DNA of 64,000 nucleotides. Source: Psammoneis japonica. Its lineage: Eukaryota. Of the stretch, positions 12,900 to 64,000 are shown in pieces. Under the pieces are notes generated by a model. The model ran no database searches, was not told where the DNA came from, and saw only the letters and a program-made list of their open reading frames with translations. How positions within the stretch are numbered: the stretch's first letter is position 1; the number at the start of each line of letters is the position of its first letter. Where the stretch lies: assembly GCA_008632985.1 (NCBI GenBank), contig QPGO01000025.1:62001-126000 (forward strand), given 5' to 3'. The position numbers and the translations under genes are program-made.

Positions 12900-14200
12900 T
12901 GTGAAAAAAAAACAAAGTCTACAGCTGTGATGCAATTTGTGGCAGGACAAATCCCGCAAGATTTTTTTGTAGTAGAATGCGGCACTTTTTGGACACCTCA
13001 CTGAAGCTGGCAGTTCAAATTTGTGGCTTGCATCTTCAAAGGTTTCAAGAGTGCCCCTTGATGCAGCTGTCTTGTTGGCCCAAGCAATCTGTCACACATC
13101 ACACCACACACATGGAGCAAAACCTTGTCTCCTTTCTTCATGTGCAGCAACTCAAACTTTCTGTTGATGCAGTCTTGCACTTGTGCACTTGCATTGCCAC
13201 AAAGCACTGTCATTGTCAGAGGGTTCAGCACAAATCAACATGATGGTTGGCAAGGAAATGAAGTCACTGCAAGTTCGCAACCTGTGCAGTCCAGTCTTTG
13301 TGGCTCTTTGCAGGTGCCAGCCTGTGTTGCCAGATGCTTGCAATGTGTGTCTCTGCAACCATGCAACCAGGTCCTTGCAGAGCTTCTTGCAGCCAAATTG
13401 TGTGACCAAACTGCCAGTGTGGCTGTGTGAGTTTCACAATCTGTGGATCAGATCACTCTGCCAGACAAGAGAGAGTGCAAATTTGAGTCAAACATGGCAT
13501 GAAACAGACAAGTTCCAGAGAAAAATGTTGTTTTTGCAATTTTTCAATGGTCTCTAACTTTTGACTAACTCGCACCTTTTGGCCAGTGGGAACAGTGCAA
13601 AAATGCTTGTCACACACCTGCGCAATTTTGCACACTTTAACATTCCATCCAAGAGTTTGATGAGACAAGCGTGCCACAAAAAATGATGGGGCATCATCAT
13701 TTGCACAAAGTGTCTTTCAACCAAAGCAGTGGTGATGACATGAAAATCTGAGCATGAGTCACCTGATTGGAAGAACCACCATTTTCCTGCTTTTTTGTTT
13801 GTTGCTTTTTGGTGTGCATCTGCCAAATCCCACAGCCGGTGCATCTATGACATCAACAGCTGCCATGCAGTCATGCCACATTGTCAGCAACACAACACCC
13901 ACAGAGTGAGTTGGAGTTTGCTCTTTTTGCTGAATTCAGCACATGCTCTTTGTTTCACTTGTTGTTTGTGAGAGCATCAAGGAAAAAAAAAGAATGTGTT
14001 GAAAATTGGAGATGGTGGCTCAATCACCACAATCTCACAAAGCACCCAAAAAGGACACTTTGTTTTCACACTGGCTCAAATGACTTGGTGCAGCTCAGCA
14101 GAAGAGCCTGGCAAGAGCAGCAGCACCACATTCCTTCACACTCACTGGTGCAACATGGCGCCAATGTTCCACCCAGCAGCACCCAATTTTGACATGGACA
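12900..14200 (-). mobile_element. Degenerate dispersed repeat, family X copy 1 (class unassigned)
   Basis: 13141-13233 matches 21716-21810, and 13960-14137 matches 26321-26520. TpA/CpG-depleted. Confidence 0.6.
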
Positions 14201-15090
14201 GATGACCACATCAAATTTTCTGCCCATGCCCTTGCAGCAGGGATGGAGTGCACATGGAGCATGAAACAATTGCAGCCCATTTCTCTTTGGGAGGCAAGAG
14301 GTGTGTGGCAAGAGGAGTGGCAAATGGAGCATGAAACAGGAGGCAGCTCTCTTTTTCCATCACATGCCAAATGACCCTCTTTCTCTGTGTGGTTTCTGCT
14401 GGTCCCAACCCATGCATGTTGCTGTGCAACACTGGCTCACAAGTGCTGTGTGGCTTTGCTCAGCCTGGCATTGCATGGCACAGCAGCACACATGGTCTGG
14501 GACAAAGTGCAGTTGGCTCAAGAACACCAAAACAGCGAGTCATGTTTGCCACTGAAATTGTGTGCCCCAGTGCAAATTCTGCAGCAGCTGTGAAAGTTTG
14601 AACATTCACCTGCTGCAGCCTGAAAGTGAGTTCACCCAAGCTTGTTTTCCACAGCTCATTGGCTCAAGCTTGTTTGCTGCAGCCTCTTTCTCTGCAATGC
14701 AGCAAATGAACTTGGGCCAAAAGTCAAAAAAGCACATTGGCGTGTCTTGAACATCTTGACCATCTTGTCAAGTGCAAGGTCCAAATTCATGTGCCTTCTC
14801 TGTGTCTTCCATGCACTCATTGTCAGCTGCATGGCAAGCTTGAGTGCACTGTCTTGTGCAGCCACTTTGTGAACTTCTGCATGTGTCCCATGAGCATCAG
14901 CACCTCTTCCAACAACAAGCAACAATGGTCAACTGACTTTTTGAAATTCCCTTCCCTCTTTCTGCAACAGCCATCAAGGTTTTGGCGTTGGCCTTTTGGA
15001 GTGCCAAAACTTGTTCCATTCCTTCCCCCACCAATTTTGTGTGGCATTTTGGAGTTGAGATTGCTTGAGAACACCTGCTCAATGTGTGCC

Positions 15091-15120
15091 NNNNNNNNNN
15101 NNNNNNNNNNNNNNNNNNNN
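15091..15120. other. Assembly gap (30 N)
   Basis: Run of N. Confidence 1.
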
Positions 15121-15416
15121 ATTTATCTTCAACATCAAATAAACGGCCAAGTTTGTGGTACAATTATGCCTCTTACCACTCGACGTTTTTGCAAATGCAC
15201 CTGCCCTACGCGATTCTTAAGACATTATAGAATCGCGCTGTAACAAAAAATGTCAAAAGTTGTTGGACGGATCGCTCAATAAGTGTACCGTAAAATGACA
15301 CAAAATATCAAAAAAATCACGTAGAAATCTACGTGCGCGACATACGACGTGATTCAAAAAACTATCGATGTCACAGTTCAGTACCGTACGAGGTCCCACC
15401 TAGACCTGGAACGCGT
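15121..15416. mobile_element. Right end of a young TIR DNA element, unmutated, nested in the transposase relic
   Basis: Normal TpA/CpG content. 15318-15416 is homologous to 51034-51130 and ends in GAGGTCCCACCTAGACCTGGAACGCG. Confidence 0.7.
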
Positions 15417-15540
15417 CTGTTGCATCTTTTGTGAAATCTTCACAGGAGGCAGGCATTTCTGATTTCTGCAAGCTTGACATTTTCCATGCAGCTCCCATGT
15501 TCATCCTTGATCCCCCCTTTTCTGCACCCCAGGGATTGCC

Positions 15541-16567
15541 ACTTTTCTACGCAAGCACCCACCAGCAACCCCTGCGTGTGTTTCTACGCGTGCTCTCGTG
15601 CTGATGTCGCCCTTTTCAGATGGCGTTTCGCTGAGTCCCCTGTCAACCTTTTGGCCCCTTCTGCCATTGGCACACCCTTTTATCTCCATGATGTGCAACA
15701 ATTTTCAGTGGAAAACGACTGGTGTCGACACTTTGTGGTTCGCATGCTTGTTGTCTTGTTTGGCAATTTTTTGCGGATTCGGTGCGATTTCTACACAGAA
15801 TCCAGTGCAAGTTCTGCACGCTTCAGAAANTATACACCGACAGTCATTACGCCTCCGATGCGATCAACTTCCATCCTCACCGAAGCCCCCAATTTCTTTA
15901 CTCCCACTGCTGCTCAAGTTCTTCACCTCATGTGGTGAAAGTGCTGTCCCTGTTGTGGCGCCTGCGAGTGTTCGCATGGATGAACCATTGGCATCATCTG
16001 ACGACCGTCCATTTGCTGCGCGGATCGGCTTTTCTACACAAGATTCAGCGTCAATTCTACGTGAGAACAACATTTCTTCTGACGACCTTCTCGTCACATC
16101 ACCAAGACTTCCCATTTCATCCTTGCAAGTCACGAACATCCCCTTTTCTGCTTGCTGGCCTGCCAAGATCACTGTTCCGAGCAGTGAACTGCACATTGTT
16201 GTTTTGGTTCATGCAATTGTGAAATTCAACCAGTCTTTGTTGAAGACAAGATTCTCCCTCAGAGGCAAAGATTTTCTCTCAGAGCATGCGCTGACTTTGA
16301 ATTCTCTGCTTGACTTGATTGTCCTTTGCTGTGGTGGTTTGGGTGCCTTGCATCCTCTCCGAAAGAAAGCAACAATCTCATTCTGGTGCAATTTTTCCTT
16401 GACCTTTTATCACTGGTGCGCGTCGCTGCAAAGCGGCGCATTGACCGACTGATCGCACGATGTTCTGCCGCACTCTCCTCGCAGGGTGTGCTGGAAGTGT
16501 GGGTTGGCTGGTGCCGGTGTTGCTGGGCAAAGGTGTGACAGCACTTAAAATTGGGTTTTGGTTTTTT
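15541..16567 (+). mobile_element. Retroposed, probably non-autonomous ~1-kb insertion sharing the LINE 3' tail; 18-bp TSD
   Basis: TGCACCCCAGGGATTGCC at 15523-15540 and 16568-16585. The 3' end CTGGAAGTGTGGGTTGGC..GCCGG..CAAAGG..GCACTT.AAA..(T)n matches 25132-25210. The host transposase reads through if the insert is removed. Confidence 0.8.
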
Positions 16568-19420
16568 TGCACCCCAGGGATTGCCTCAATCATTTCCCTT
16601 TCAGCCAGTGCTTGCAGCAGCCCCTTGGAATTGCCAAGCCAGCCTGGTGTCATTTTCTGTGCCTCCTTTTTTGGCTGGAATGTTTGCCTTTTCACATTTG
16701 ATTGCAGATCCTTTTGGCTGCACCCTTTTGAGTCACACAGCCTGGATTGCTTTCCCTCAGATCAGCCCACATTTCCTCAAGGAAGGAGCTTGTCAATGGT
16801 CTTGGTTTGGTTCGCGCTTTCATTGCAGCCTTTCTTCAGGATCCATGTGAGGTGAGGTCCTCTTCATCAACATCCTGCAACAAAACATGTCATTGGCATC
16901 TCTTGTCCACTTTGCAACTGGCAAGAGTTGTTGTGCTCTCCAGCACATTTGTCTGTCAGGGTGTGCTTGGTGTCATCTTGTGCTTCCTTCACCACCACAG
17001 GCTCATCTTCTTGTCAGCCAACAACCCATCCTTCTGCTGCTTTGAACAGCCCAACAAGTGGTCAAAAAAGAAGATGTGCTCAAATTCTGGCAACACAATT
17101 CACCCAGAACATTGGCGCAGTCCTCCAGCTCCTGTGTTGCCACATGGGTGCAATTCCAACATGCTTGGCAGTTCTGGCCACACTCAAATTTTGCCATGAA
17201 TGGGACTCATCTCTGAATCTTTCTTGGTGCTTCATCCCCTGACTTCTTTTGCTGCTTTTTTGCATGCACTTGGCTCCTGTCCCATTGTGATTGACTCATT
17301 TGAGCAGCTCTTGGTTCAGCCCTCACTGCAAGCCAGTCTTGCGACAGACAAAAAGAGAAAGCATGATGCTGAGGCCCTCATCTTTCAGAACAAACATGGT
17401 CTCACCATTTTGTCTGACCCAAGCCAATGGCCCTGTCTTGTTCCCACACAACAACCAGTTTTTCACCTGCAGGAAACCAAAAGCTTGCTTGGCTGCCACA
17501 CTGCTTGGCTTTCAGATCACACTGGGTTGTGCAATCTTTTCATGAAAGCCACTCTCCAGTTGCCCACATGAAACTCCATGAATGTGCTGTCATCTTGAGC
17601 AAATGTGGAGTTCTTCCATTGGGTTGGGGCCAATGATTTGTTCATGAGGTTGGCTGCTGCCGCCTCATCTTCCAGCAGGATTGGAGCCCCCACATGTGGC
17701 ATGACTTCTTTGACTCAAGTCACTCTTGGTGGTGCAGCTTGGTGGCTGGCTTCTCATGACCATCAATGCAGAACCACTTTGGTTTGTGAATGTGCTCAAG
17801 TCCAAGGAGGAGCCATGATGTTCTGTGGGCTGCTGCTGGTGCAGAAACAGAAAGTAACCCAAGTTTGCTCTGTTCAAGAAACAGACTTTTTGTGTCTTCC
17901 TTTTCTGCAGCTGGTTCTGGAGGTTTGCCCACAGACTTGGTCATCATCATCCAGCACCACACTGTCTTTGTTTGCACTCAGCAATGCCACAGGTGTGGCC
18001 TTTTTTGTGAGTGTGATTGTGCTCCAATTTGGCTGAAAAACCCCTCAAGTTCTTGATTGGGTAGCATGCAAAGCACTCTTTGCTTCTGGGCTCCAGCTGA
18101 AAAAGGTTGACAGTTGTGGCTCAGATCAGCTCTGGCAGCTCTGGAGAAAGCCACACTCTGTCTTGGCCAAACAATGATGTTGCTGCTGCACTGCACCTGC
18201 CAGTTGGCTGTCACTGCAATGCTGTCTTCTTTTGGCCACAAAGCAGCCGCCCAGAACATTGACGGCACTGATGCCAACTCACACCATCCTCAGCCTCATT
18301 TCCTTCACCCTTTGGATTGTCAAGGGCTGTCTGAAAGGCTGTCATGACACACAGCGGGTGATGCCAAGTGGCACCACCTTTTCAAAATTGGCAGCACCAG
18401 ATTTTTGTTGCCCTGGGTGTTGGACAAAACAGACTGACATCTTTGTGCATGATTGGCGACAGCAGACAAAATGCCAATCCTGTCTTGTGTCATTGCCTTG
18501 ACATTGACATCATTGGGGCAAACACAGAGAGCAGTGCACTGGTGTGGCGCATGACCATGTGTGGAGCCCCAGCAGCAGCCAAGCTGTGGCACAACCCCTT
18601 CTTGGCTGATGGGCCCAACTCTTCAAAACAGACATGTTTTCACCTTCTGTTGCCAGCATTGTTTTGTCCACTGTGACTCACCTGCTCTCACAATGTCTGG
18701 ATTGGCTGCAGGAAACTCAGGGAGCACCTCAGCTTGTCACACTGTTGACCTTCTCATGGTTTTCTTGACCACCTCACTCTGCAGACAGCGTCATTTTCTG
18801 TCATTGGCGGGCAAAGAAAACAATGACAGTGGGAGCCGCAGAGCAACAACAAGGAATTTGCCATCAACGACGTGCAAGTGTTTGGTTTTGTGCAGACTTG
18901 CATGACCCCTGCAGTGGTTGGCTGGTGGGTGCTTGGCATGACATGTGAAATTTTGCCCATTCTTCCATGAAGTTTCTCCACCTCTCTGCTCGAAACTTGG
19001 GCTCCCTCATCACAGAAACTGAGCTTTGTGAGGAGTTGCAGTGCTCCACCCAAAGTTCCGCTGTCTGACACAATGGCCTTGGACCCGCTTGCACACGAAG
19101 AAGACGAGGTGCCTTGACAGATGGATTGAGAAGGTAATCCAGGCCCCTGGCATCATCGTCGAGCGAGTTCTTCGTGGTCTCCGACAAAAAATGACGTCTT
19201 GTACCAGTTGCGTAGAAATCTACATGAAGTTTGATCGATGATCGATGCTCGCTCATCGCTCAATGATGCACTGACACATCATGATCACTGATCACGCAAC
19301 AAGCCAACTGGACAACATCAGGCCATCGCTGTTTCGCTGTTGTGGTTTCCAACTCCCATCGTTTACCTTGCGTTGCTGTCTTACGTGCTGCCATCCACCA
19401 CACGGACTGCTGGTCTAACA

Positions 19421-20263
19421 ATGTCCCCGTCTTTGCCGCTACAATCGAGAACTACGCCCGGGAACAACGGGGAGGAGTCAGAAAAGAAGCCTCCAGCTTT
19501 CCCATCAAAGAAAGAGGTTGCAGATTGCATTAAAGTGTTGTCTTACGTCGAGTACAGGCTCTCTCACGGTAAAAATCGGGACACAATTCATTCAAACCTC
19601 GAGGAGGTTTTGTTGAAGGTTGCCAGTATTCAGCATCATGCAAAAGAACTTGTACGGCCTGCGGAGGTGATCGCAGAAGAGACTGAAAAAGAAAAGGCCT
19701 TCGCCACGAAACGAAAGGCTCAAATGGAAGTTGTCAATCGTCTGGAAAAGAAGCGTGCTGAAATGGTTTCAGAATGCCGAAAATTACTTCCCAGAGGATA
19801 CACCGAAAAAGTGAGGCGCGAGGTGCTTCAAGAAATGGGATTGCCGTTGGACACGCTAACCATGGGTGACGTAAACTATAACCCCGCAAAGAAGAGCGCA
19901 AAGCGCAAGGCACAGACGCAAGCTCGTAGAGAAGAGAAATTGTGCAAGGCTGGCCCTGTTGTACTGGCGATCGCTGAGGCTAGAAGACGATGCCAGGAGC
20001 TTAAGAAGGACGGGAGGATTCCGAATGGCTCGACCGAGAGAATCAAATTGCAGGTTCTGGAAGAGTTTGGTTTACCTCCCGATACGCCCTTTCCTACAAA
20101 CTACCAGATAAAGACAAGGGGTGCTCATGTGAAGGTCACAAAAGCCCTGTCCTTGGACTCTCATGAGACGTCAAATAATAATGGTGTGGACGAAGGGGGA
20201 GTCGCGCGCACCTCGAACTCCACGGGAAATAATGCAGGGAGCAATGCGGGGCACTCAAAGTGA
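19421..20263 (+). CDS. Orphan basic protein family, copy 1 (~280 aa)
   Basis: ATG 19421 (MSPSLPLQ). Near-identical to 27184-27954 and homologous to 35389-36219. Internal duplicated motif P.G..E...(E/Q)VL.E.GLP.DT. Confidence 0.75.
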   Translation: MSPSLPLQSRTTPGNNGEESEKKPPAFPSKKEVADCIKVLSYVEYRLSHGKNRDTIHSNLEEVLLKVASIQHHAKELVRPAEVIAEETEKEKAFATKRKAQMEVVNRLEKKRAEMVSECRKLLPRGYTEKVRREVLQEMGLPLDTLTMGDVNYNPAKKSAKRKAQTQARREEKLCKAGPVVLAIAEARRRCQELKKDGRIPNGSTERIKLQVLEEFGLPPDTPFPTNYQIKTRGAHVKVTKALSLDSHETSNNNGVDEGGVARTSNSTGNNAGSNAGHSK

Positions 20264-21539
20264 GGTGACTTGATTGACGGCACAGTAGATGAGGCACTTG
20301 GAAGTATCTCTTAGTTTTACGGTACCTCATTGGCGAATGTGTAGATGGTGGAAAATTACGTTCATAAGGTACTCTTCTCATCCTTCGACGTGCAGCATCT
20401 TTTTGGATTAGCACGGGGCCCTGCTGGCGTCTTGGTCCTTTTTGTGAAAGGAAGTGCGACCGCAAGGAATTCGCCCTGTGGCAAATGTTAGCCTGAAATG
20501 TTGATTTCTTTTCTGCTGGTGTTATAGCAACAAAACCAACTTCTGAATCGGCTCCCATCTTGTCTGAACACGTGTGTTCACATGTCACCTGCTGGCCTGA
20601 GCTGATCTTTCTCTTCCACCAATCTTGACAAACAGTCTCGACTGCATTCCATGAGAGGGGGCTTCCAAAACCGCATTGACTCACATGTTCCTGATGCAAA
20701 CTTGAAACATCAATTTCTCATTTCTCTTCCATCGGTGTCAAAGCAACAAAACCAACTTCCAAGATGGCTTCCATCTCACATCTGAGCACATTGGCACATC
20801 ACTCGCTGGACTGAACTCAATCCTTTTCTTCTGCCCATCTTGAAAAATGTCTTAACTTTTTCCCAAATAACCAGCACAAAACTGCAATGCTGTCAATGTG
20901 CAAGAAATCAACCAGCACCATGAGTGGATGAAGTGCTGCATGGAAAGAGCAAAAGAAACAATGCAGTCATGTCAACAATGCCTCACTGAAGTTGGCATCA
21001 TTGCCCCATGTTGTGTTGCAATGCATGTGTGCCAATGCACGCAGGCAGCCATTGCCAAAAGAAAATGAATGTGGCATGACTGTGATGAGCAAGTGCAAAA
21101 ATGCACACATTGCATGGCTGTGATTCTGGCCAGCTGATTGCATGCTACACATTCGTTTGGCATGTTTCACGAGAAAAACAATGTCACACACTTCTTGGCA
21201 AAGTTGTCAAGCTTTTCCTCTGCCAAAGCAAACACTTTCCTGAACATCTTTTGCACCCAGTCCACCAGGATTTTTTCTCAATTGAGAATTGCAGGTGTGT
21301 TTTTCCCACCAGAGCTTGGCCCAAAAATTCTGCAGCCACAAAGAGCACACCATGTGTGGAACCTGCATCTCAGAGTGGCGTTGAGAGCTCGGCCACAAGC
21401 CATCATTGCTGTTCACTCTCTGTCAAATTCCACACAATTTGCGCCATCCTCAATCATTGTCTTTGACCATCTGGAGCAAGAACACGCTGGGGTGGCACAG
21501 AGGAAAGAGCAGCAAACTTGAAAAAGTCAGCTGTTCAGC

Positions 21540-24500
21540 CACACATCTGAAACTTCCTTGATGACTCTTGGTTTGTGCAACAAATTTTGAGCAGGGTGGC
21601 AATGCTGCTCCATCCCAATGGTGCAAGAAGCTCACATCTTCCAAAGTTTCAAGAGCACCATGGTGCAGCAGTCCTGGTGGCTCAAGCATTTTGTTGTGTC
21701 ACACACACACATGCATGTGCAGCAACTCAAACTTTTCATTGATGCAGTCTTGCACAAATGTGCATTTGCATTGCCCACAAAGCACCATCATTGTCAGATG
21801 GCTCAGCACAAGCCAGCATTGTCAACAAAAAAAAAAAGTTGCACGAAGTTGCTGCAGGTTTGCAGCCCATGCATTCCACCCTTCATGGCTCTTTGCAAGT
21901 CCAAGCCTGCAGCAGCACTGCCATGCCCCTGCAATGTGGATCTCTGAAACCCAAACAACCAGGTTCCTGCAGCCAATCTGTGCTGCCAAATTGCTGGCAG
22001 CGCAGCTGCATGAGCTTTTTGCAAGCTGTGGATCAGATTATTTTGCAAAACAAGCCTTTTGCAAAACTCAGTGTTTTCACAAAAAGTGAGAAAAGCGGCT
22101 GTAAATCTGAGCTAAAAATGACATGTGTTCCTCCAACTTGCAAACATGTCCCAGCTGTGCATGCAGTGCACACAAAAAACATGAAAATTGTGCAGTTCTT
22201 TTTGGTCTCTGGCTTTCAACTGAACTTCTGAGTCTTTGCAAAAACAAGAATGTTTGCAACTCAGACAAGACTTGCGTGTGTGGCACAGTGTTGTTGTTTC
22301 TGTCACATCATCTCTGCTGCCTCTTCATTGCACCAAATGAGTTGCAACAAAAGGGACAGTTTCTGGTCTCTCTTCTAACCTGCAAGTTTTGCATGACGTT
22401 GTGCCATTTGAGCACAGTTGGCACACCCCAAAAAAATTGTTGCACATGCATTGTGGCAGCTGTTCTAGAACTTGCAAACTAAAAAACATTGGCTGGGTGC
22501 TGTTGTGTGTGCACGCCACAAAAATTTGAGCAACATTTGAAAAACTGCTTGTTTGCCCATGCATTGATCTTGGCACTTGCTTGTGGCCAGAGCACATTTG
22601 CAGCTGAGTCCTTCTTCATCAGGTGACATGTTGACCTCAACAGCAACACATCAGCACTGCTCCTTTGCCTCCAAACAGGCACTTTTTTCTCTGGTGTGCA
22701 CTTTTTCTTTGAGTTGACAAGTCAGGTTGATGTGTCATTTCTCCTTTGCCATTTGCAGCTGTTTGCATGAAGCCCAAAAATGCTGTGGAAGTGTGCTGCC
22801 ATTGTGCTTGGCAATTTGGCAATCATTTCATGACACAGCAACTGGCACTTCTTCTTCAGCCCATTTCTTCACCTTTTTCACATGACAAGTTTGACACACA
22901 ATGGTGGATTTCAGCACATGTTTTGCACACAGCTTTCTCCTGGCTGTTGCCAATGCCTTCTCCAGTGGACATGGTTGCCTCAACTTTCACACCATCCTCC
23001 TCAACAACGTTGAACAGACTGAGCCATGCCACCATGCATGGGGTCCTTGGGCGCGGTTGTGTGGATTGTTGTGTCATCAAGACTCAGCACGTCTGAAGGC
23101 TCCCTCAGGAGACTGGCTGGTCCCCCCATCCAAAATGAGGATGCAATGTTCCGCGCATTGGTCTCCCAATGAGCCACACTTGTGCGTTTGATCTCCCTTT
23201 GGATTTGACATTTTTCCGGTCCAGGACACCATCACCACGTCACTGCACCAGATCGAAATGGTTCCTTCCCCCTCCGACTCATCATTCCCGGTTGAGATTG
23301 ACCCCATGAATGATGGCAGATGGAAACATGTCCCCCATTGCCCGAAACTCTCAGTTGAAACAAATCCACCCTCACCCGACCTGTTCACAGACCGCTTGAA
23401 AGCATTGCCTTCCTGGGATTCCTCTCTCTTTTCTGACATTGATTTCCACATTTCCTTTTATGAACCAGTGGACCATTTTGCATCCAGTCGCCTGGTGGCG
23501 GGGAGTGACGAATCTGCACTTCATCAGGACACTGCCTTCAGATGGACTGTTACATTCAACAGCAGACCCTCAGTGGATTGTGCTGGTCCGGTGTTTGGTC
23601 AGTTGCCATCATCCCATCGGGCTGAGGCATGTGGTTTTCTTTCCCTGATTCGGTTTGTCTGTCATCTGATTGAGTTCTGCAAGATGTCACAGTGTGAAGG
23701 AGTTGACAACTGGTGTGACAACAAGGCCTTGGTCCAAGTTCTTTCCAGATTGTCCTGCAGCCGCCCTTCCATTGACCCATCAGCACAAGAGCATTCCGAC
23801 CGAGACTTTCATCTGTGACAGCATGATGCCAATGTTCTTTCATCCAATTGGGATGTCAGCAATGAAATGCACTTCACGCTTGAAGCCATTCCTCAGGCTC
23901 TTAATCCCTCCTCCTCCGGTCAGGCTCCGTCAACAGCTTGGGCAAAAGGACACCAGGACAGACAGGCTCCAGTGGAGACCCTCCCATTGAACACACAAGT
24001 CAACGTCCATGCAGATAAGTTGGCAGGACGATGCCAGGGACAACATGACTCAGACACAATGGAGGTGCTTCCCTTTCCCCATTGTCAATCATGCCTGTGC
24101 CTCAATGATGGTGCGGTCAATGCAGGAATGAAATCCACGGTCAGATGTGCCGCTGCAGCTCCCGCTCTCCTGGCACATGTTCGGGAAAGGAATGACTGGG
24201 ACGAAACTGTCACAGAAAAGAACGATTGGAAGGTCCATGCGACATCAGTGTGCAGGCATTCTAAGAAACATGTCTCCATGGTTAAACTTGTCCATGAGCT
24301 CCTCCCAACAAACAAGACAACACATCGGTGCAATCCAGTTTGGCCACATCATTGTCTTGCATGCGAATGTCCTGTGGAGGATCGAGACCATGTTCTAAGG
24401 TGTCCAGCCAATGAAGCCTGGCATCGCAAATTCCTGCAAGGTCCACACAAATGCTGTGACAAAATTGACACCATGCCGCCTCTTTGCGACCTGCTGTTGA

Positions 24501-26600
24501 CTTCACTTGAAGCATGGCTGCGAGGCAAGATGCAGTGTGAATCTGATGTCATCCCAATGCTGAGAGCACTGTGGAAAGCCCAGTCAGAGACAGGATGGCA
24601 GCAAGCATTCAATGGAAGGTGCTCCACCCTTTGGAAGGTGCTCCGCCCTTTGGAACGTTTTTCAGGAGATTCACCTTCGTGAGATGGGCCTGTTGGAGAA
24701 ACACAGGAAAGAAAATCGACCCCCTCCGGTTTGGGGAGTGCAGATGGGAACTTACATTTGGAAGTCCTGGTGGGAACTGTGGGAAGAACACAATCAAGAG
24801 GTTCACAGTCATGATGCAGATTCAAGGAAATCATCATTGCCTGTCAGGCGGAAGCTGAGCTCACGGCTGTTTACAACAAACGACAGGATCATTTGGCTAA
24901 AGATAGAGAGATGCTGATGGATTCAGTTGATGATCACATGTCCCACTCTACATTGCAGATTATGAACTGGGTTGCTGTGGTCAAACCACATCTGAAAGAA
25001 AGCCTGAAGAAGGCAAAGCGCGAAGTGCTTCATGGCACTTGCTCAATTGCCAGCTGTTTTGGATGGGTGTCATCTCACAGTGACGTCCCGTCTGGCTGAT
25101 CCCAGTGAGCTTCTGCACACTTAACTGTGCACTGGAAGTGTGGGTTGGCCGGCGCCGGCTCAGCTGGCAAAGGAGTGATGGCACTTTAAACACAGATCTG
25201 TTTTTTTTTTTCACACCATCCTCCTGTGCCAGATGGTGTTTGCACAAGGACAATGTTGGCATGCAGCACAGACCTCTTGGGTGCACAGAGATGTTGTGAG
25301 AGTCAGCATGACACAGCCTCCTCCACTCCCACATTTGATCACCACATGTGCAGCAAACTCTTGTCAGTGTGCAGCTGCTCCTGTGCACAATCTTGTGCCA
25401 AAAGGAGCTGCCAAGTGTGTGGCCCACACCCTGGAGAAACAGGCTGTTGTCATGTGTGAACACACGCAGCTGCTTTTGAACCAGCCATGTTGTGCTGGCA
25501 CACAAGCAATTTTCCACAACAACATTGGTGCAAATGCCAGCAGTGAGAAGCCACACCTGGGTGCACTCCACTTGCTTCTTGCTTCACTCCACATTTTCGC
25601 CAGCAAGGAGCACAGCACAGAAGCCCACATTGCAAATGAGCAGTTCTCACACACCCCTGCATTCTGTCAAACATGGCAGCATCATTTGCACAAAGTGCCA
25701 ACCAAAGCAATGTCAACACAACAAAATCTGCCCTTGAAGTGCCTGGCTGTGCAGCAGCATGCATTGCTGAGCAAATGAAATTCCACATGTTCACAATCAC
25801 ACATTGTTGTTGCGCATGTCAGTCGCATGACAATCGTGGATGCACACAAAAAAGTCAGATGGATCACACAGAATTGAGATCAGATGCCCAAAATTGCAAA
25901 TGCAGTTGACAGACAATGTTGACACATGAGAAGTCAATGTTGGTTGCATTCAGACAATCTGTTGTCATGATCAGATTCTCTGCAAGGCCTTCTTTGTTCT
26001 GAAGGAGCAGCTCAAATGCTTTGGGCCATTTAGAGCTCCTTCGGAGAATCCCAAAATCGCAGAGCAAAATTTAATCTCACAGTTTCCACTTTTTGTGAGT
26101 TGCTCTGCTTTCATTTGCACTTGTTGTTCAAGCACAGTGCAGCTGGGGTCATCATCACCTCCGCTGTCTTTTTTTGGGGGGGGGGGTTTTGGGCGTGCAG
26201 CTGCCAAACCCCACAGCCAAGGTGGGTGTCATGGCACCCTGCACGGCCAGCACAATGCAAGAGCATTCACAGAGTGCACTGATTTGTGCTCTTTTTGACA
26301 AGCTTGGTTGCTGTTTGCAACAGCACCAAAGAAACAAGAGTGCATGTGCTGAAAATTGGAAATGGCTTGACAACCACCATCTTGTTGGCTGTTCTTTGCT
26401 TTTTGTCAGCAGCCAAGCTCTCAACAAAGCAACAAAAAGGAGGTTTTCTTTTGTGCCAGCTTGGATGACTTGGTGCATGGCAGAAAAGCCTGTGGCAAGA
26501 GTGTGGTGTCACATTCCTTCCTTGCATGTCACCACAAAACACACAGGGTTGATGCCCCTCTCCCCCAGCACCCTGCACTTGAGACACGGCACAGACACCT
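21540..26600 (-). mobile_element. Degenerate dispersed repeat, family X copy 2, interrupted by a LINE
   Basis: Homology to 12900-14200 at both ends. TpA/CpG-depleted. Boundaries approximate. Confidence 0.55.
23002..25210 (+). mobile_element. 5'-truncated non-LTR retrotransposon (RNase H + CCHC knuckle; possibly Ambal-like) with oligo(T) end and 15-17 bp TSD
   Basis: RNase H motifs SDES..AF.W, SSHRAEACG, WCDN, KGHQD, NVHADKLA. Knuckle CLAC...EDRDHVLRC, then Q..GW..AFNGR. TSD (TT)TCACACCATCCTCCT at 22985-23001 and 25209-25225. Confidence 0.88.
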
Positions 26601-27183
26601 CAAAGTTTCTGCCATGTGCCACGACTCCTGCAGTGAGGGCAGGGTCTGTGTGTGTGTGCACAAGAGCGTTGAGCACCTGTGCCCTGCCTCTCTTTTGGAG
26701 GTGAGGAAAGAATGTGTGTGACACGGGCAAGTGTGGAAGGGAGAGAGCGGCAAGCAGGCGTGGCATGAGAAATGAGTGGTCCTTTTTTTCTGTAACATGT
26801 CAAATGAGCGGCCCGCTTTCTCTGTCACATGTTGTTTCCCTGTGATGTGAAGCGTGAAAAGGAGTTTCTACCGCATGCTTGATTTCTGCTCGTGACAATC
26901 CCCATAAGTCTCCACCAACAAAGGCAACACTGCGGCAACAGGACAACAACATCAGCCCGCATCGCTATCGCGCCGCACGCGCATCGCTGTTCTTCTCGTC
27001 GCTGTGCGCTGTGCTCTGTCTGTGCTGCTGTTCTTGTTCTGGTTCGATGTTGTACAGTGTATGTTGTTTACTTTTCTGCTGTTTATCGCTATTGTGGCTT
27101 GTTCGTATTCATCCCAACTCCCATCGTACCTTGCGTTGCTGTCTTACGTGCTGCCATCCACCATACAGAGTGCTGGTCTAACA

Positions 27184-27954
27184 ATGTCCCCGTCTTTGCC
27201 GCTACAGTCGAGAAACACGTCCGAGAACAACGGGGAGTCAGAAAGGAAGCCTCCAGCTTTCCCATCAAAGAAAGAGGTTGAAGATTGCATCAAAGTGTTG
27301 TCGTACGTCGAGTACAGGCTCTCTCACGGTAAAAATCGGGACACAATTCATTCAAACCTCGAGGAGGTTCTGTTGAAGGTTGCCAGTATTCAACATCATG
27401 CAAAAGAACTTGTACGGCCTCCGGAGGTGATCGCAGAAGAGGCTGAAAAAGAAAAGGCGTCAGCCACGAAACGAAAGGCTCAAATGGAAGTTGTCAATCG
27501 TCTGGAAAAGAAGCGGGCTCAAATGGTTTCAGAATGCCGAAAATTACTTCCCAGAGGATACACCGAAAAAGTGAGGCGCGAGGTGCTTCAAGAAATGGGA
27601 TTGCCGTTGGACACGCTAGCCATGAGTGACGTAAATTATAACCCCGCAAAGAGGAGCGCAAAGCTCAAGGCACAGACGCAAGCTCGTAGAGAAGAGAAAT
27701 TGCGCAAGGCTGGCCCTGTTGTAATGGCGATCGCTGAGGCTAGAAGACGATGCCAGGAGCTTAAGAAAAACGGGAGGATTCCGAATGGCTCGACCGAGAG
27801 AATCAAATTGCAGGTTCTGGAAGAGTTTGGTTTACCTCCCGATACGCCCTTTCCTACAAATTACCAGATAAAGACAAGGGGTGCTCATGTGAAGGTCACA
27901 AAAGCCCTGTCCTTGGACTCTCATGAGACGTCAAATAATAATGGTGTGGACTAA
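27184..27954 (+). CDS. Orphan basic protein family, copy 2 (C-terminus shortened by GAA->TAA)
   Basis: Near-identical to copy 1. Nucleotide homology continues to ~28200 (versus ~20450). Confidence 0.72.
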   Translation: MSPSLPLQSRNTSENNGESERKPPAFPSKKEVEDCIKVLSYVEYRLSHGKNRDTIHSNLEEVLLKVASIQHHAKELVRPPEVIAEEAEKEKASATKRKAQMEVVNRLEKKRAQMVSECRKLLPRGYTEKVRREVLQEMGLPLDTLAMSDVNYNPAKRSAKLKAQTQARREEKLRKAGPVVMAIAEARRRCQELKKNGRIPNGSTERIKLQVLEEFGLPPDTPFPTNYQIKTRGAHVKVTKALSLDSHETSNNNGVD

Positions 27955-28479
27955 GGGAGTCGCGCGCACCTCGAACTCAACGGGTAATAATGCAGGGAGC
28001 AATGCGGGCACTCAAAGTAAGGGTACAGTGGATGAGGCACTTGGAAGAATCTCATACTTTTTACGGCAGCTTATTCAAGAATGTGCAGATGGTGGAAAAT
28101 TACCTCACGTTCACAAGGTACTCTTCTCAGACTGCGACGTACAGCATCTTGTTGCATTAACACGGGTTTAGTAGCGTCTTCGTCCTTTCAGTGAAAGAGA
28201 CCGGATACGTATTATGATACCTTAAACACCAATCGGACAACTGCACCATGGGTTCACGGTGCAGAAGTTTTTATTTTAACTCTACAATGACCGAATGACG
28301 CGCACCTCAGCTCAATCTGATACAGTCTGTAGCTAAGCTGTAGAACAAACGAATTCTCTAAGTTTGAAACATGAATTTTCACTCCTCGATCACAGTCAAC
28401 GGCTGTTTTTCGGTGCGTCAGTGCCTCTCAAAAGTCGTGCGTTTTCCCGCAATTTTCTTGCAAAAATGGCCAGTGCCCC

Positions 28480-29213
28480 CCCAGCGTCAGGGGACAAAAG
28501 GAACGGATCTCTGACCCCCTCTGTCTCCTCTTCAGGTACAACATCAAGAGGCAAATGTGGCAATCATGTTGGTGGGTGGTGGTGGAGTGCCTGACTCACC
28601 AGAAAATTTGAGCGGCAAAGAGTGAGAGTCTGACAACCCAAGCCAGTTCCCAAACCTGGCAATTGTGTCAGTGTCACTTGCAACCACTGGAAGTGTGACA
28701 AGATTGTCAACTGGCAGGGAATGTTCCCCTTTTTTTGGAGTGTCCCATCATTTGCTGCTTTTGGGAGACCAAAACACCTGGGTTGCATTGGAGCCAGCAG
28801 TTTGTGGCACTTGATTCTCGTTGAAGGGGACAGGCACACTTCTTCCCTGGCATTTGCAACACACCAGGCAATTCAAGAAGCAAATGGAAGCCTGAGGTGT
28901 CAAGAAGAAGCCACTTCCATGGAAGAGTTAGAACATGCCACACCAGTCAATTTTTCTCATCTGTCGTGTCAAGGGAGATGCAAGGACTGCATCAGAGCAA
29001 ACATGGTTTGCAAGGTGCAGAGGTGTGTGAGAATGTTGCACATGGCACAACACATGTGTGCACTGAGCCACCACACCAGACAATCATCAGCTCATTGTGA
29101 CTGTCTGAGAACCACAGCAAGGTGCCACAAGCTTGCAACCAACTTCTCAACTCCTCAGCAACAAGCATCTGCCCTGAGTGCTGGTGCGTCTGTGGCACCA
29201 CAAACGCACCAGC
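28480..29213. mobile_element. Unclassified TpA/CpG-depleted relic ending in a 34-nt palindrome
   Basis: Composition as in the other islands; hairpin at 29180-29213. Confidence 0.45.
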
Positions 29214-29411
29214 GGACAGAAGTTCTTTGAGATTGCAAAATTCCAAGTTTGTTCTGGGTTGTTCTCGGAAGATGCCATCGCGACATAGGATCGGCGAGTA
29301 GTCTTCATTCACCATGGCTCGGCAAACCCTTGCTGAACTCCGCAAAGTATGGTAGATGCATCACAGAATCATTTTCTCTCGCAGAAGCAAAGGCTACTAT
29401 AGCAATGAGGA

Positions 29412-31192
29412 ATGAAATACAAGATAAGGAAAGGGAGTCCTTGGATTGATCCCGACACACCCGAAGCACTTCGCAGCGTCGTGAGCTTCCCGGAACTACC
29501 GTTTGACAACGATGTGAAACGAAAATTCCATTTGGTATTTTCCGACGAGTTTAACGTGGAGGGAAGGACTATGCACGATGGTGAGGATCCTCGTTGGACG
29601 GCCTTGCATTCGGATGATTTGACGAACAATCCGTTGCACTGGTACAGTCATGACGCGGTAAAGACCGAAAACGGAGTTTTGAACATAACATTGGACGTTC
29701 ATCCGGAGACATTTACCTACATGGATCGCGTCTTCCAGCAAGTCAAACAGAAACCCACGCAAAAGGAAGTTAATGTCACAAAGGAGTTTCGTAGTGGTAT
29801 GGTGCAGAGCTGGAACAAGTTCTGCTTTGTCGGGGGTATTATTGAAATATCAGCAAAACTTCCCGGCGATCCGAAGACCGGAGGCTTGTGGCCAGCAAGT
29901 AAGTCATCCTTTGGAAATATTAAGTGTGTGTAGCATTGACGCTGATCTCCTCTCGCTCTACAAAACTTATCTCTTACTTTACAGTGTGGATGATGGGAAA
30001 TTTGGCCCGCGCCACTTACCTCGACACCACCGATCACATGTGGCCCTTCTCTAACAACGTCTGCAGCGAGTATACGAGATATGCGCAAGAAATTAGTGCT
30101 TGCAACGATAAACCCGGCTACGGCATGCAGCCCAATCGTGGTCGAGGAGCTCCGGAGATCGACTTCTTTGAAGTCATGTATATGGATTTGCTACCCGATC
30201 CGCTACTGAGTGCATCGTTACAGGTTGCGCCTGGCAAGCCAACCAATCGTCCTTTCTTGGGAATGAAACCCAACGTTACATGGTATCACCCATTCTTGGG
30301 TAACGGCGGTAGTTTGAACGAGTATTTCTTTGGCACACGCACATACGATCCCAACAAGACCCTGGAGTACCAGACGGACACTGTTTCTGTGAACTTTTGG
30401 CTCAACGAATCCTTTTACACCGATTTTCACAAATTCCGCATTGAGTGGGAACCTCCGGTGGAAAATATCAGGAAAGTCCCTCTGCAATTAGTCGAGCTGG
30501 TTATATCAAATGGTTCATCGATGGAAATTTGATTGCCGGCATGTCGGGGGATGACTTACAAGAGATTTCACAGACCGAAATTCCGTCGGAGCCCATGTAC
30601 ATTTTGTTAATCAGGCTGTGTCCAAGGACTGGGGCTTCCCTGATGCTTGGTTCCTCAACTGCAAAAAGAAATGTTGGAGTTGTTTGGACCCCGCTTGTGA
30701 GTGTGCTCTACCAAATGGATTTTGCAGCAAGAACATTCCCGCCTCATTTGAGATTGACTACGTGCGAGTGTATCAGATTTGAAAGATCCCGGCCACATTT
30801 TAGGCTGTTCACCACCCTCTCGACCAACGGCGGAATGGATCGAGGGACACGAGGAGCGATACATATTGTGGCACAGCCCCCCAGGAACCAAACCACTGCT
30901 GCCTGTTCCAAGTGGTGGAATGGCTTGTTCGAGCGACGAGACCTGTGGTGCACTGATTGGCAGTGGATTTTGTGATACAACGAATATGGCTTGTCACTGT
31001 TTTGAAGGTTGGACTGGGCCCAACTGCCTTTCGGCATACACTGGAAACGCAAGTGTCATCTCCAACGCACACCGGTTCCTTGTTCGCGGTGCGATCGCTG
31101 TGGTAGCAGTTTCAGCGCTTCTTGTGTGGCGCACTTGCTGGCGCAAGAAAAAGCAAGGATACGAGACGCTCCCAGATTCCGCGCTAAATTAA
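29412..31192 (+). CDS. GH16 KRE6/SKN1-like beta-glucan transglycosylase with EGF-like domain and TM anchor (intron 29899-29984; ~3 frameshifts; 5' end unclear)
   Basis: WIDPDTP, LVFSDEFN, SGMVQSWNKFCFVGG, GLWPAMWMMGNLARATY, RGRGAPEIDFFE, IPSEPMYIL, EIDYVRVYQ and C.C..GWTGPNC, followed by a TM segment. Confidence 0.85.
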
Positions 31193-33626: not shown

Positions 33627-34439
33627 CGTAACAGAGCCAAGGTGCTGCTGCGCCCAACATGAAGATGATTGCTCATGATCAAATCTCGCACCGACTCCTC
33701 ATTTGGGGTGTGGCAGCTGCTGCCATTTTTCCTTGGCTCCCATTCAACAGCAAATGGAGCATTGGCGGAAGGCTGTCAAACAATTTTCGCAAGCTTCTTC
33801 TCTCAATTGCAGTCATTGATTCACGCCGTTTGTTGGTCCATGGAGACGAGGTGCATTCTCATGCTTCAGACCTCTTCTCCAACACCCTTGGTGTTGTTGA
33901 GGTCATTGGACTGACCTTTCTTTGCTTTCTTGCTCCCCATGTCATGCAGACTAATTTGTCTGTGTTCACCCACCTCTGCCCTGGCGCCAGTTTTTACATG
34001 CCGCTCGTGGAGCTGGAGTCTTGAGCTTCTTGGGGGTGGTCCTTTCTCGCACAGTCAATCCCAGATTTTGGTGTCAAAAGAAACTGGCGAATGGCATTGC
34101 AGCACCACCCGTCATCACCATGGTTTGCCAGTGCAACTGTGTCATGACAGCAAGATTGCATGGACATGGCTTTGTCACTGCCCAAACCATGCTCCTCATT
34201 GAGTGCTGGCATTTGGGCGTGCAAGTTTTCTGTGCCTTCTCCCATGCCTTTGATCATTTTGCAAATGATCAGACCTTTGTGGCATGGGATGTGCTTTTGC
34301 ATTCAGCTCGATCTTCTGCTTTCCTTTCTGACTGGGTTCGGGTGCTAGTTCATGCCATGTTTTTGAACAGCCTTGATGAGCTCAATCACGTTGGATCCTT
34401 TCAGCCAGCAGGGTCAACTGGCTGCAAAGTTTTCTGCAG

Positions 34440-34708
34440 CAATCAGATTGCAATCAGTCATTTGCATCGCTGTGGAGCAGCAATTAGTTGATTGCAATTG
34501 TGCAGCGATTGCGCGGTCTGATGAACAGACCGCAAAGAAATCGAGCCATTTTGCTTGTTTCAGCTGTGAAAAGAGCTCGAATTTCGATTGCAATCGATTG
34601 CAACAGTCAACTGTGATTGCGACCTCGGCTCTTTCCCAACAATCAGGTTGTTGCAATCGAGTTTGCAACAGCAATTGCAATCAAAATGAGGCTGATTGCA
34701 GTCGATCC
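34440..34708. mobile_element. MITE-like insert built of GATTGCAATC / CAATCGATTG palindromic repeats
   Basis: Imperfect terminal inverted repeats ATCAGATTGCAATCAG .. CTGATTGCAGTCGAT. Many internal copies. CAGCA flanks both sides. Confidence 0.5.
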
Positions 34709-50196: not shown

Positions 50197-50299
50197 GATA
50201 AATAACCGAGAGCGATATTTGCATGAAGAGAAACCCTCACGAATAGGAGGAACTGATGAGTGATGCGAGTTGATCGAAGAAGTGTGATCGCGCTCATGG

Positions 50300-51700
50300 T
50301 TGAGGTTGATGAGGGTTGAGGCGGGTTATTGCGTCACACGGAACACGGAATCCACACACAAGAAGTAGCGATTCACTCACATGAAGAACGGAATCCAGAC
50401 ACGGTCGTTGTTTCGTGCCTCTCTTGCTCTGCCCGGCACGGCAGACCCATGCGGCGACCACGCCTTCTGCTGTCACTCCTTGCGGCACATGACAACACTC
50501 TCCAATGCTGTCCGGACGGTTTGTTTGCTGCCCTTCAGGCTGTCGGCCCAGCACCCTCCGGCATCTGTGCAGACTCGCCGGGCATGCACCACGAGCCTGC
50601 CAACCTCACCCCCCACCACTCTCCCCTCAAATGCCCCACCAACGTTGGCACTCAACTCACCCTTGCTCACACCACTGCTTCACCCTTGGGACACACTTGC
50701 CTCACCATTGATGCCACAGTCCCTCTGAGCTGCCGAAGGGTTCCAGCCCCAGGTGGAACTCCGTGTGACATTGGGCCCACAGAATTCCACATGCGAGCTC
50801 CGCAGCAAATTTGTGCTGCAATGAAAATGTGTGTGATTGCCAACAGAAAAAGAGGCAATTTTACGAATGCATCTCCTCCTTCATGCTTGGAGGACATCAT
50901 TGACAGTTTGCCCGGGTGTGTTCTTCAGACATTAAAGAACATGCCCAGTGCATTTTCATTCTCACAAATGTTGAAAATGGAAAGCCTTTGGCTTCGCAAA
51001 ACAGGGAGCATGAAACAATTTTGTAGAATGTCACACGTAGAAATGTGCGTGTGCAACATGCGACACGATCCAAAAAACTGTTGATGTCACAGCTCAGCAG
51101 TGCGAGGTCCCACCTGGAGCTGGAGCGCATCTGCTGCCCACCCCCTCTCAGCTCCCAGCTTGCCTGCTCCCATGCTCAACCCTTTTGCCAAGGCACATGA
51201 TCGCACAAGCACCAAGCGAAAGTTTCGCAGCAACCACGACTCTCAGCATGAATCAACGGCTGTGGCTGCCTTGATTCAAGCGGGTCTTTGCATTGTTCTT
51301 TTTGCCATTGACTGCCTTGGAGCACTGGGATGTTTCACCACCTGTCCACCACTCAGTCCCGGCCAATGTGCCATCTGGTCTCCGTGCCCCCCGATCTGCC
51401 TTGGATGCCCAAACCATCCTTTCAGTGCCCAGCTGCCCATCATGATGCATGTGCCTGTGTCTGTGCCCAACATTCACCATCAGGGATCATCTCAGCTGCC
51501 AAGCATCTCCAATGTGACCTGGTTTGACCTTTCCCCCAGCACACCACTGCGCCGCTCCAACAGGGCCTCTGGAGCATTGGCCTGACAGTTGCCAAGTCCA
51601 TTGCCAACCAACCTGCCCAATGCTCTGCCAAATTGCACACGCACCTCACTGCACCTTGCTGCACCCCACCCCAAACCCCTTCCTTTTCTTGTCTGCATGA
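50300..51700 (+). mobile_element. Relic 3' end of a CRE-like non-LTR retrotransposon (restriction-like endonuclease)
   Basis: DGLFAALQ..EP.NL.P...KCPTNVG..LTIDATVP (degenerate RPAD..IDVT), then KRKFR..LFAIDCLGALG. Confidence 0.62.
50737..51130. mobile_element. ~390-bp MITE nested in the CRE-like relic; same family as 15121-15416
   Basis: TIRs TTCCAGCCCCAGGTGGAAC / GTCCCACCTGGAGCTGGAG. The right end aligns with 15318-15416. Confidence 0.75.
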
Positions 51701-52174
51701 CTCAGTTTTCTTTTAAGATTTCATCATCCCACTGCAGCTTTCGTCATCCACACCGTGCCACCAGGTGAACACAACAGGGCACGTGCATGCATTGTTCTCT
51801 TTGATGATCAGCCCTTCTTTGCCAACTTCTTTCTGTTGTCTCATTTTTAAGACCAACATCTCTCTCTCTCTACCTGCTGTAGATCTTGCAGCTGTCCACC
51901 AGACGCCGTCACTTTCCTTGAGCTTATTCCTCGACGTGAGCCACAAGATTTGGATTTCGGCGCGCATACAAAGTCAATGTGCTGGGAAACAAAAAGATGC
52001 TGAGGGTTAAAGGAATATACCTAAAGGTTTCTACTGCAAAAGTGTGTGTTCTATGAGTTTCCAGCTTTTCAAAACGAAACAGGAAATGCTTCATTGTCGA
52101 AGATTGTCGAAGCCAAGGCTTCGGTTCGGTCACGCTTCATACCGAGAGAAGATAATTTTCTTGTTGAGGCCAAC

Positions 52175-63429: not shown

Positions 63430-64000
63430 GCATGAAGAACGGTTGACGCATGGACTCACGACAGAGAGAGTGACATGAGCCTGTGAGCTGCAGCAGCTGT
63501 GAGTGACTCAAGATTTGTGACGTGCAGGTTGCTGACAAATGGACAGATGGCAATGCTGTGATGTTCGGCATCAACCAGCCAGCGGCGATTCAAGTTTGCC
63601 ACCCAGTGGAGGCAACTGCATCATTGTTTTTCCTCGACAACGATTGAATGAATCGTTGATGCTGTTCAAGGCCATTGAGAAACATTTGACATCTCACGTT
63701 GCAAGATGAGAGTCATGTCAGTTGGGGTGATCGCTGATTGGACTGAAAAAAGGCATGAAAACAAGGAAAATGCTGGTGCGGAGGATGATTGGATTTTGCC
63801 CACTTGGCTGAGACGCAGCACTGCACTGTTGTGAGTCACAGCAAGTCATGATGAGACATGCCCTGTCACCTGGCAGGTGCAAAGAGGGTGTGCAGTGAGC
63901 AGTGCGTGGCACCCTTTGTGGAAACACACGTCCGAAAGTGAGTGCACTCTGACCAGACAAACAACCCAAAACAAGTGCTGGTGCTGAGATCACCACTTTC
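63430..64000. mobile_element. Start of another TpA/CpG-depleted island; runs off the window
   Basis: Essentially no TpA from ~63430 to the end. TG/CA-rich like the other TE relics. Confidence 0.5.

Follow-up and report, generated by a model that had tools for sequence, protein, structure and literature searches.

The 64,000-bp stretch of Psammoneis japonica DNA analysed here (contig QPGO01000025.1, positions 62,001 to 126,000 of the forward strand; hereafter the window, with coordinates counted from its first letter) contains sharply bounded blocks from which the dinucleotide TpA has been almost erased. We consider it likely that a targeted process turning TpA into TpG or CpA struck dead DNA of mobile or foreign origin, in a nuclear genome resembling that of diatoms, accompanied by a slower decay of CpG. 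Segmentation with a two-state hidden Markov model, whose normal and hypermutated states were built on the four pyrimidine-purine dinucleotides, assigned 13 segments totalling 17,012 of the 64,000 bp (27% of the window) to the hypermutated state, with edges sharp to a few bases. Within this one window the hypermutation was confined to these discrete regions, and the rest was of normal composition. The 13 segments retained 50 TpA against approximately 1,100 expected from base composition (odds 0.04) and 214 CpG (odds 0.21), and contained 1932 TpG (odds 1.84) and 1973 CpA (odds 1.85). Normal-state DNA outside open reading frames (ORFs) of at least 150 amino acids, 21,044 bp in all, had TpA odds of 0.62 and CpG odds of 1.03; TpA was moderately under-represented throughout the normal DNA (odds 0.50–0.62). 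The remaining dinucleotides were nearly constant between hypermutated and normal DNA (AA 1.23 vs 1.20, AT 0.82 vs 0.91).

Chance falls far short of accounting for this composition. When 13.0–35.0 kb was divided into 500-bp bins, TpA often numbered 0–4 against 30–40 expected and CpG 1–7 against 22–32, with TpG and CpA each at about twice expectation; several bins had no TpA at all where 30–35 were expected. TpA has been removed more completely than CpG, and apparently ahead of it: TpA was low and CpG intermediate in 12 bins, and no bin had low CpG with TpA retained. Among the TpA surviving in the nine main blocks, 39 of 49 lay in TTA or TAA, compared with 664 of 1752 (38%) in normal DNA (sites 13555, 22039 and 24872 are examples of survivors), and ATAT, ATAC and GTAT were eliminated completely. 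The excess of TTA and TAA may reflect a secondary context preference or newly arisen TpA. A 75-bp segment inside an ORF (38855–38929) was also called hypermutated, with 19 TG and 3 CA; it looks like a TG-rich simple repeat and was rejected as a false positive of the segmentation.

A protein fossil on the plus strand of the largest block (22952..25093, +) gave the direction of change. It comprises an RNase H domain, a zf-RVT-like zinc finger and a conserved C-terminal domain, and is interrupted by four in-frame TGA codons. A search with the read-through frame returned two relatives, and a profile of both returned 43 longer proteins of 1,000–2,140 amino acids, giving 45 homologues in total. Among the 43 longer homologues, PF03372 (APE endonuclease) was found in 21, PF00078 in two and PF13966 (zf-RVT) in one, and a repeated Pfam search on four homologues recovered APE, reverse transcriptase and zf-RVT domains; Pfam did not recognise the fossil itself. 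One of the 43 is named as a protein of the diatom Fragilaria crotonensis. In tblastn searches with the 45 homologues all 46 matches fell inside 22952–25093 (+), the best covering residues 888–1553 of a 1,560-residue homologue (P0043; 31% identity, E 9e-86). Upstream of the equivalent of approximately residue 888 there was no match, and the APE and reverse transcriptase domains and an open frame are not present in this copy. Since the matches all lie in 22952–25093 and begin at about residue 888, the fossil corresponds, as judged from sequence homology, to the tail of a non-LTR (long terminal repeat) retrotransposon, or long interspersed nuclear element (LINE), of diatom type; the copy is truncated at its 5' end and dead.

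An AlphaFold model of 23450–24109, built with 39 homologues, reached a pLDDT of 80.1, and its top Foldseek matches were to Escherichia coli RNase HI (E 1e-6, TM by target 0.65–0.73). Residues D20, E59, D90 and D189 were invariant in the alignment of this region, which is predicted to adopt an RNase H fold with acidic residues at the 'SYRAE' motif; the domain was detected neither by Pfam on the four homologues nor by a PDB sequence profile. TpA odds at 80 metagenomic loci belonging to this retrotransposon family were 0.48–0.92 (median 0.675). At four of them, intact LINE relatives (L066, L060, L046 and L069), TpA odds were 0.48–0.56 and CpG odds 0.57–0.80, and in L066, L046 and L069 TG exceeded CA on the coding strand, a mild and asymmetric pattern unlike that of the blocks in the window.

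The preliminary description of this DNA had proposed, from protein motifs on both strands, that conserved Tyr had become Cys or His and conserved Ile had become Thr, so that the ancestor carried TpA. The peptides it named are present with the predicted codons (His CAT, Cys TGT or TGC, Thr ACA), and alignment to intact homologues bore out the ancestral TpA for the retrotransposon fossil. In SSHRAEACG (23609..23635, +), the motif of the RNase H catalytic Glu, for which the homologue consensus is TSYRAE(G/A)YG, the His (CAT) column was Tyr in all 43 occupied homologue rows, and the Cys (TGT) column was Tyr in 29 of 43 (Ser 8, Cys 2, Thr 2, His 1, other 1). In QSETGWQQAFNGR (24581..24619, +; homologue consensus QN.IGWRQLFNGR), the Thr (ACA) of QSETGW at 24581–24598 was Ile in 42 of 45 homologues. 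The Gln (CAG) that follows QSETGW was Arg in 43 of 45, corresponding to a CpG to CpA change, and the Ala (GCA) of the same peptide was Leu, Val or Ile in the homologues. Cys or His was thus not the homologue norm at the named plus-strand positions, and the outcome that the preliminary description had set as refuting its proposal did not occur there.

The same direction was seen along the whole fossil. Its alignment with the 45 homologues had 954 columns, 283 with a consensus residue, of which the fossil retains 142. At the 11 consensus-Tyr columns the window has Tyr once, His three times, Cys three times, Phe twice, and Val and Glu once each. Cys or His therefore occupied 6 of 11 such positions compared with 32 of 561 in homologues (Fisher 2e-5), and Tyr was retained at 1 of 11 compared with 440 of 561 (Fisher 3e-6); each homologue was scored against the rest as a control, and since the pooled rows are not mutually independent the p-values are rough. 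Only one of 13 consensus-Ile residues is retained (Val 5, Thr 1, Met 1 among the replacements), compared with 480 of 652 in homologues, and 14 of 18 consensus-Trp residues are retained. Changes from Ile to Thr, Met or Val (p=4e-4), from Leu to Ser or Pro (p=6e-4) and from Arg to Cys, His, Gln or Trp (p=0.01) were also enriched in the window. Examples of the last are Arg to His at 23663, 24269 and 24422, Arg to Cys at 25040 and Arg to Gln at 24599. As the blocks have lost CpG too, Arg codons and not Tyr are the source of some of the surplus Cys, His and Gln; the proposed Tyr and Ile substitutions hold at the plus-strand motifs but are not the sole source of the altered residues, the decay of CpG having been overlooked. 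At 86 mismatched columns one step from the consensus, the inferred changes were TA>TG 8.3, TA>CA 8.0, CG>CA 11.0, CG>TG 3.0, other transitions 11.5 and transversions 44.2.

Several lines of evidence indicate action on both strands. On the sense strand of this single retrotransposon fossil, TA>TG (8.3) and TA>CA (8.0) were matched, and over the nine blocks TG (1852) and CA (1923) were equal (p=0.25), in agreement with the strand symmetry proposed earlier. Two hypermutated copies of one repeat, 13031–13469 and 21635–22054, are 74% identical over 438 aligned bases, and 14 of their 50 adjacent double mismatches are exchanges between CA and TG; such exchanges were absent from the 131 and 137 double mismatches of two pairs of non-hypermutated paralogues of similar divergence (Fisher 3e-9). 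Such a doublet arises when an ancestral TA (or CG) is struck on opposite strands in two separated lineages.

The same locus was compared with a run from a second genome of the same organism (X1), assembled as Logan contigs; X2 and X3 span only parts of the stretch. X1 contigs of single-copy depth (58–65) extend across junctions of normal with hypermutated DNA, at 0.2–1.1% divergence from the window; one (depth 64) starts in normal DNA at 12277 and continues into the first block, and another (27922–29721) spans the fourth. Among 40 of the 662 difference rows, eight were TA vs TG or CA (TA in X1 seven times, in the window once), five were CG vs TG or CA, six formed three TG/CA doublets, seven were other transitions, seven were transversions and seven lay in complex changes. 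Taken together, the sense-strand symmetry, the equal totals of TG and CA, the paralogue doublets and the orthologous differences show, at the level of sequence comparison, that the process acted on DNA, in place and on both strands, after copies and lineages had separated. The preliminary description had likewise favoured a DNA-level process over editing of a retro-RNA intermediate, and that conclusion holds, on evidence other than that originally offered, namely symmetry and the doublets between paralogues and with X1.

The original argument had been that a DNA transposon was affected as well, on the basis of a minus-strand frame (16262–18622) with motifs taken to be those of a transposase. 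The peptides WFCIDGHE, which contains FCIDGHE (17753..17776, –; C is TGC and H is CAT), and FECGQNCQACWNC (17150..17188, –; Cys codons TGT and TGC) are present, and their Cys and His codons fit Tyr ancestry, but fit an origin from Arg (CGY) or from original Cys or His equally well. Pfam searches with pieces and with the whole frame gave no family even at E<=5, an exhaustive phmmer search gave no match among 1.84 billion representatives, and there was none in PDB. Heavy mutation may be hiding a true relationship, but with no transposase or other family homology found by these searches the assignment to a DNA transposon finds no support, and the argument built on it falls away.

Both fossil frames are interrupted by TGA alone, at 19 of 19 in-frame stops on the minus strand and 4 of 4 on the plus strand. 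TAA and TAG require TpA, so that only TGA stops remain, and without TAA and TAG every frame opens and the region fills with long spurious ORFs. The 12 kb between 14000 and 26000 contained 73 stop-to-stop ORFs that reach 80 amino acids or more, all rich in Cys, His, Trp and Gln and free of Tyr. The fossil frames contained 0–0.3% Tyr and 4.8–5.5% Cys, compared with 2.3–4.2% and 1.1–2.7% in the homologue proteins. Gene callers would over-predict in such DNA while protein fossils escape Pfam, distorting both gene and repeat annotation. Two sets of stop-to-stop ORFs, 104 and 42 in number, contained no credible Pfam family.

The blocks differ in length and content. Block 1 (12983..15087; TA 4, CG 9, TG 246, CA 266) is now single-copy and contains, at 13031–13469, the paralogue of the segment at 21635–22054 in block 3. 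Block 2 (16482..19080; TA 3, CG 18, TG 306, CA 283) is single-copy and bears the minus-strand frame described above. Block 3, the largest (20573..26722; TA 26, CG 89, TG 666, CA 737), holds the retrotransposon fossil and repeats. Block 4 (28539..29260) has TA 1, CG 6, TG 78 and CA 92. Blocks 5–7 (31794–33421, 33507–34503 and 34637–35042) have 4, 5 and 1 TA and 11, 24 and 8 CG, respectively, and no Pfam family. Block 8 (50598..51842; TA 5, CG 29, TG 122, CA 150), also without a Pfam family, lies between two ordinary genes, and block 9 (63462..63994; TA 0, CG 14, TG 71, CA 55) continues past the end of the window. A short segment is common to blocks 2 and 3 (16491–16568 and 25132–25208; such short pairs are 77–81% identical), and X1 contigs connect 16421/16503 with 25127/25163. 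The copy at 25132–25208 lies just past the end of the LINE ORF and may represent a common 3' tail.

Between blocks 1 and 2 lies a very high-copy repeat (15124..16480, its extent also given as 15121–16668), adjoining an assembly gap of 30 N at 15091–15120 and containing a single N at 15830. Its summed X1 contig depth was 3,800–58,000 compared with approximately 64 for single-copy DNA, and it has no Pfam family. TpA is partly lost and CpG kept (in the bins starting at 15501 and 16001, TA 8 of 28 and 3 of 32 expected, CG 23 of 31 and 23 of 29), as expected of a younger target. A 106-bp segment of this repeat (15318–15423) is shared with block 8 (51034–51137) at 81% identity.

Three islands of normal composition, each between hypermutated blocks, hold one copy each of a plus-strand ORF family rich in lysine and glutamate. 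Copy A (ORF 19292–20263, 323 amino acids) lies in the island 19086..20571 (TA 46, CG 82), copy B (ORF 26908–27951, 348 amino acids) in the island 26724..28537 (TA 65, CG 98) and copy C (ORF 35281–36216, 312 amino acids) in the island that extends from 35044 onward. No Pfam family was found for any of them and no Atlas look-alike for copy B. Identity between copies A and B is 92% over 1.1 kb (19349–20450 and 27114–28197), and copy C (35389–36064) is approximately 68% identical to both. Thirteen of the 61 differences between A and B are TA vs TG or CA, which is suggestive of light exposure of these spared copies. A trigger by duplication, as in repeat-induced point mutation (RIP), was rejected, since this 92%-identical 1.1-kb duplicate escaped and full mutation was found in blocks now at single-copy depth, although depth does not give past copy number.

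The window is eukaryotic and gene-dense, with long ORFs including a PPR/Smr protein, a GYF protein, a carnitine acyltransferase and an EF-1-alpha-like GTPase. The best named relatives of the carnitine acyltransferase were all from diatoms (Amphora 48%, Chaetoceros 46%, Cyclotella 44% and Nitzschia 42% identity), compared with 33–35% for oomycetes and fungi, with no near-identical match; by sequence relationship, the flanking genes are diatom-like. A tandem duplication of approximately 270–325 bp (47775–48361; 79–92% identity) was present on the 3' side of a gene encoding a fusion of beta-lactamase and alpha/beta-hydrolase (48181–50325, minus strand).

Explanations other than targeted editing of adenine or of TpA as such have to be weighed against these data. 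Hyper-editing of retrotransposon transcripts by an ADAR-like adenosine-to-inosine activity, fixed by reverse transcription, would suit the fact that the sole identified element is a retrotransposon, and ADARs favour U before the edited A, according to the discussion in a recent preprint (Mettrop et al., bioRxiv 10.64898/2026.01.13.699255). Such editing predicts A>G on the sense strand only, whereas on that strand the fossil carries T to C at TpA just as often (TA>CA 8.0, TA>TG 8.3). The depletion also extends beyond the LINE into flanking DNA of the same 6.1-kb block, the CA/TG doublets, seen both in the paralogue pair and at one locus in two genomes, need events after integration, and AA is unaffected. 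RNA editing is contradicted by these results and is extremely unlikely. It might alternatively be supposed that TpA and CpG are hypermutable genome-wide, the blocks being old neutral DNA at equilibrium and the genes being held by selection. The low TpA odds even of normal DNA and the 23 bins with intermediate TpA and normal CpG are in line with this, but the 21,044 bp of normal non-ORF DNA have TpA at 0.62 and CpG at 1.03, and the edges of the blocks are sharp within a few bases. Moreover, the fossil retains 142 of 283 consensus residues while its 500-bp bins have TpA at 0.03–0.18 of expectation; a fossil half conserved with its TpA nearly gone implies a TpA-specific rate far above the general one, and an untargeted process is very unlikely.

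Modified bases cause context-specific miscalls on some platforms, and the window contains an N gap and a single N, so that a sequencing or assembly artefact in which such bases were miscalled as TG or CA was also considered. X1 contigs show the same TpA-free sequence at depths of approximately 60–65 and differ by 0.2–1.1%, and therefore represent another consensus; the check is not fully independent, as it concerns the same organism and possibly shared sequencing chemistry. We find an artefact scarcely credible. Chemistry centred on thymine is a different matter. In dinoflagellate DNA, TpA is the preferred site of 5-hydroxymethyluracil, and pairing of 5-formyluracil with G is possible. If the T of TpA were enzymatically modified, for example by oxidation to 5-hydroxymethyl- or 5-formyl-uracil, and miscopying or misrepair then put C in its place, the traces would be identical to those of adenine deamination: TpA is self-complementary, A to G after T being T to C before A on the other strand, and for this reason the sequence results here cannot separate the two chemistries. 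The thymine route has no specific support here, and the sole experimental precedent interprets the signature as adenine deamination, naming an ADAT2-like candidate without a test (Mettrop et al., bioRxiv 10.64898/2026.01.13.699255). On balance we regard the thymine route as unlikely.

Other observations weigh against a targeted TpA process itself, or temper it. The spectrum was derived from standing differences and not from mutations observed as they arose; the comparison with X1 rests on 40 of 662 difference rows, and its single TA/TG and TA/CA differences lack an outgroup, so that polarity comes from the doublets and the protein fossils only. The homologues are approximately 30% identical to the fossil, so ordinary divergence is large and the changes in TA and CG context (approximately 30) are a minority; of the 141 consensus columns with a mismatch, 55 cannot be reached by a single change and approximately 44 are best explained as transversions. 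An origin could be assigned to one block only, that with the LINE fossil; parts of the blocks are multi-copy and the others contain no recognisable protein. The 92%-identical pair of copies A and B stands unharmed between hypermutated blocks, and targeting is thus not simple repeat recognition. Finally, none of the 80 metagenomic loci was depleted in TpA (lowest 1-kb window odds 0.31), although a search keyed on peptides favours intact copies; these loci say little on how common the process is.

The direction of change, its strand symmetry, its sharp-edged confinement and its action after separation of the copies are established by the data of the window, and the blocks are probably dead, silenced mobile or foreign DNA. 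A scheme consistent with this would begin with the integration of mobile or foreign DNA, after which targeted DNA-level transitions would turn TpA into TpG or CpA, either strand being struck with equal probability, while methylated CpG in the same regions would decay more slowly to TpG or CpA. The outcome would be DNA nearly without TA and CG, with TG and CA doubled and TGA as the sole stop left, and a protein trace of Tyr to Cys or His, Ile to Thr, Val or Met, Leu to Ser or Pro, and Arg to Cys, His or Gln. A dedicated enzyme may be involved, the simplest candidate being an adenine deaminase that attacks the A of TpA, with hypoxanthine read as G, and targeting would presumably follow chromatin state rather than duplication. 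The chances seem to us evenly balanced that diatoms or a close relative possess a dedicated TpA DNA-editing defence, directed by chromatin, working alongside CpG methylation and sparing TTA and TAA, which would be the same as, or convergent with, that of the chlorarachniophyte Bigelowiella natans.

That mobile DNA can be countered by targeted hypermutation is established in the case of C to T changes, by fungal RIP and by APOBEC. Like RIP, the process seen here ruins mobile DNA in sharply bounded blocks by dinucleotide-specific transitions that skew dinucleotide ratios, and in both cases polarity can be set by protein fossils and alignments of paralogues. The direction is opposite, however: RIP, as it is generally described, changes C to T mostly at CpA and creates TpA, whereas here TpA is destroyed and CpA and TpG are made. 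RIP also requires duplicated sequence, unlike the spared duplicate and the now single-copy mutated blocks of the window. The decay of methylated CpG in silenced transposons leads to the same loss of CpG to TpG and CpA as found here (odds 0.21), but cannot remove TpA, the loss of which is more complete here and appears to precede that of CpG. The editing of retroelements by ADAR and APOBEC likewise consists of deaminase-type transitions in mobile elements, with a preference of ADAR for a 5' U or T neighbour, but these enzymes act on RNA or first-strand cDNA, asymmetrically and on retro-copies only, in contrast to the symmetric, post-integration changes found here, which include non-LINE DNA.

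The closest parallel is B. natans. In mutation-accumulation lines of this rhizarian, the preprint reports de novo changes only of TpA to TpG or CpA, in integrated giant-virus and virophage DNA, and clusters of its genome that are poor in TpA and rich in CpA and TpG are enriched in reverse-transcriptase and DDE domains; an ADAT2-like adenine deaminase was proposed there without a test (Mettrop et al., bioRxiv 10.64898/2026.01.13.699255). On the preprint's account, the two cases have in common the change from TpA to TpG or CpA, on both strands and in discrete regions, and that a single-copy region can be a target. They differ in the host, which here has diatom-like flanking genes and belongs to another supergroup, and in the depth of depletion (odds 0.04 here, compared with 0.45 for the region of B. 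natans derived from nucleocytoplasmic large DNA viruses and a cluster cut-off of 0.43). In the window the hypermutated blocks have lost CpG as well, whereas its loss is not reported in the Results and Discussion of the preprint; the target identified here is a LINE fossil and that in B. natans a giant virus and a virophage; and the signature was observed there as de novo mutation and is known here from sequence differences alone. No paper reporting a TpA-erasing signature in diatoms was found by full-text literature searches, and the 2026 preprint on one chlorarachniophyte is, as far as is known, the single report of an A:T to G:C counterpart on DNA (bioRxiv 10.64898/2026.01.13.699255). The kind of process has thus been described once before, in another supergroup, and is here more extreme, coupled to CpG decay and affecting a LINE. 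The presence of the same signature, more complete and linked to a LINE with CpG decay, in a diatom-like genome suggests a mechanism widespread among ecologically dominant algae, whose enzyme and targeting could become testable in genetically tractable diatoms. If such a defence is indeed present in diatoms or a close relative, A:T to G:C editing of foreign DNA, an 'anti-RIP', would be an ancient trait, widespread in the SAR (Stramenopiles, Alveolata and Rhizaria) supergroup.

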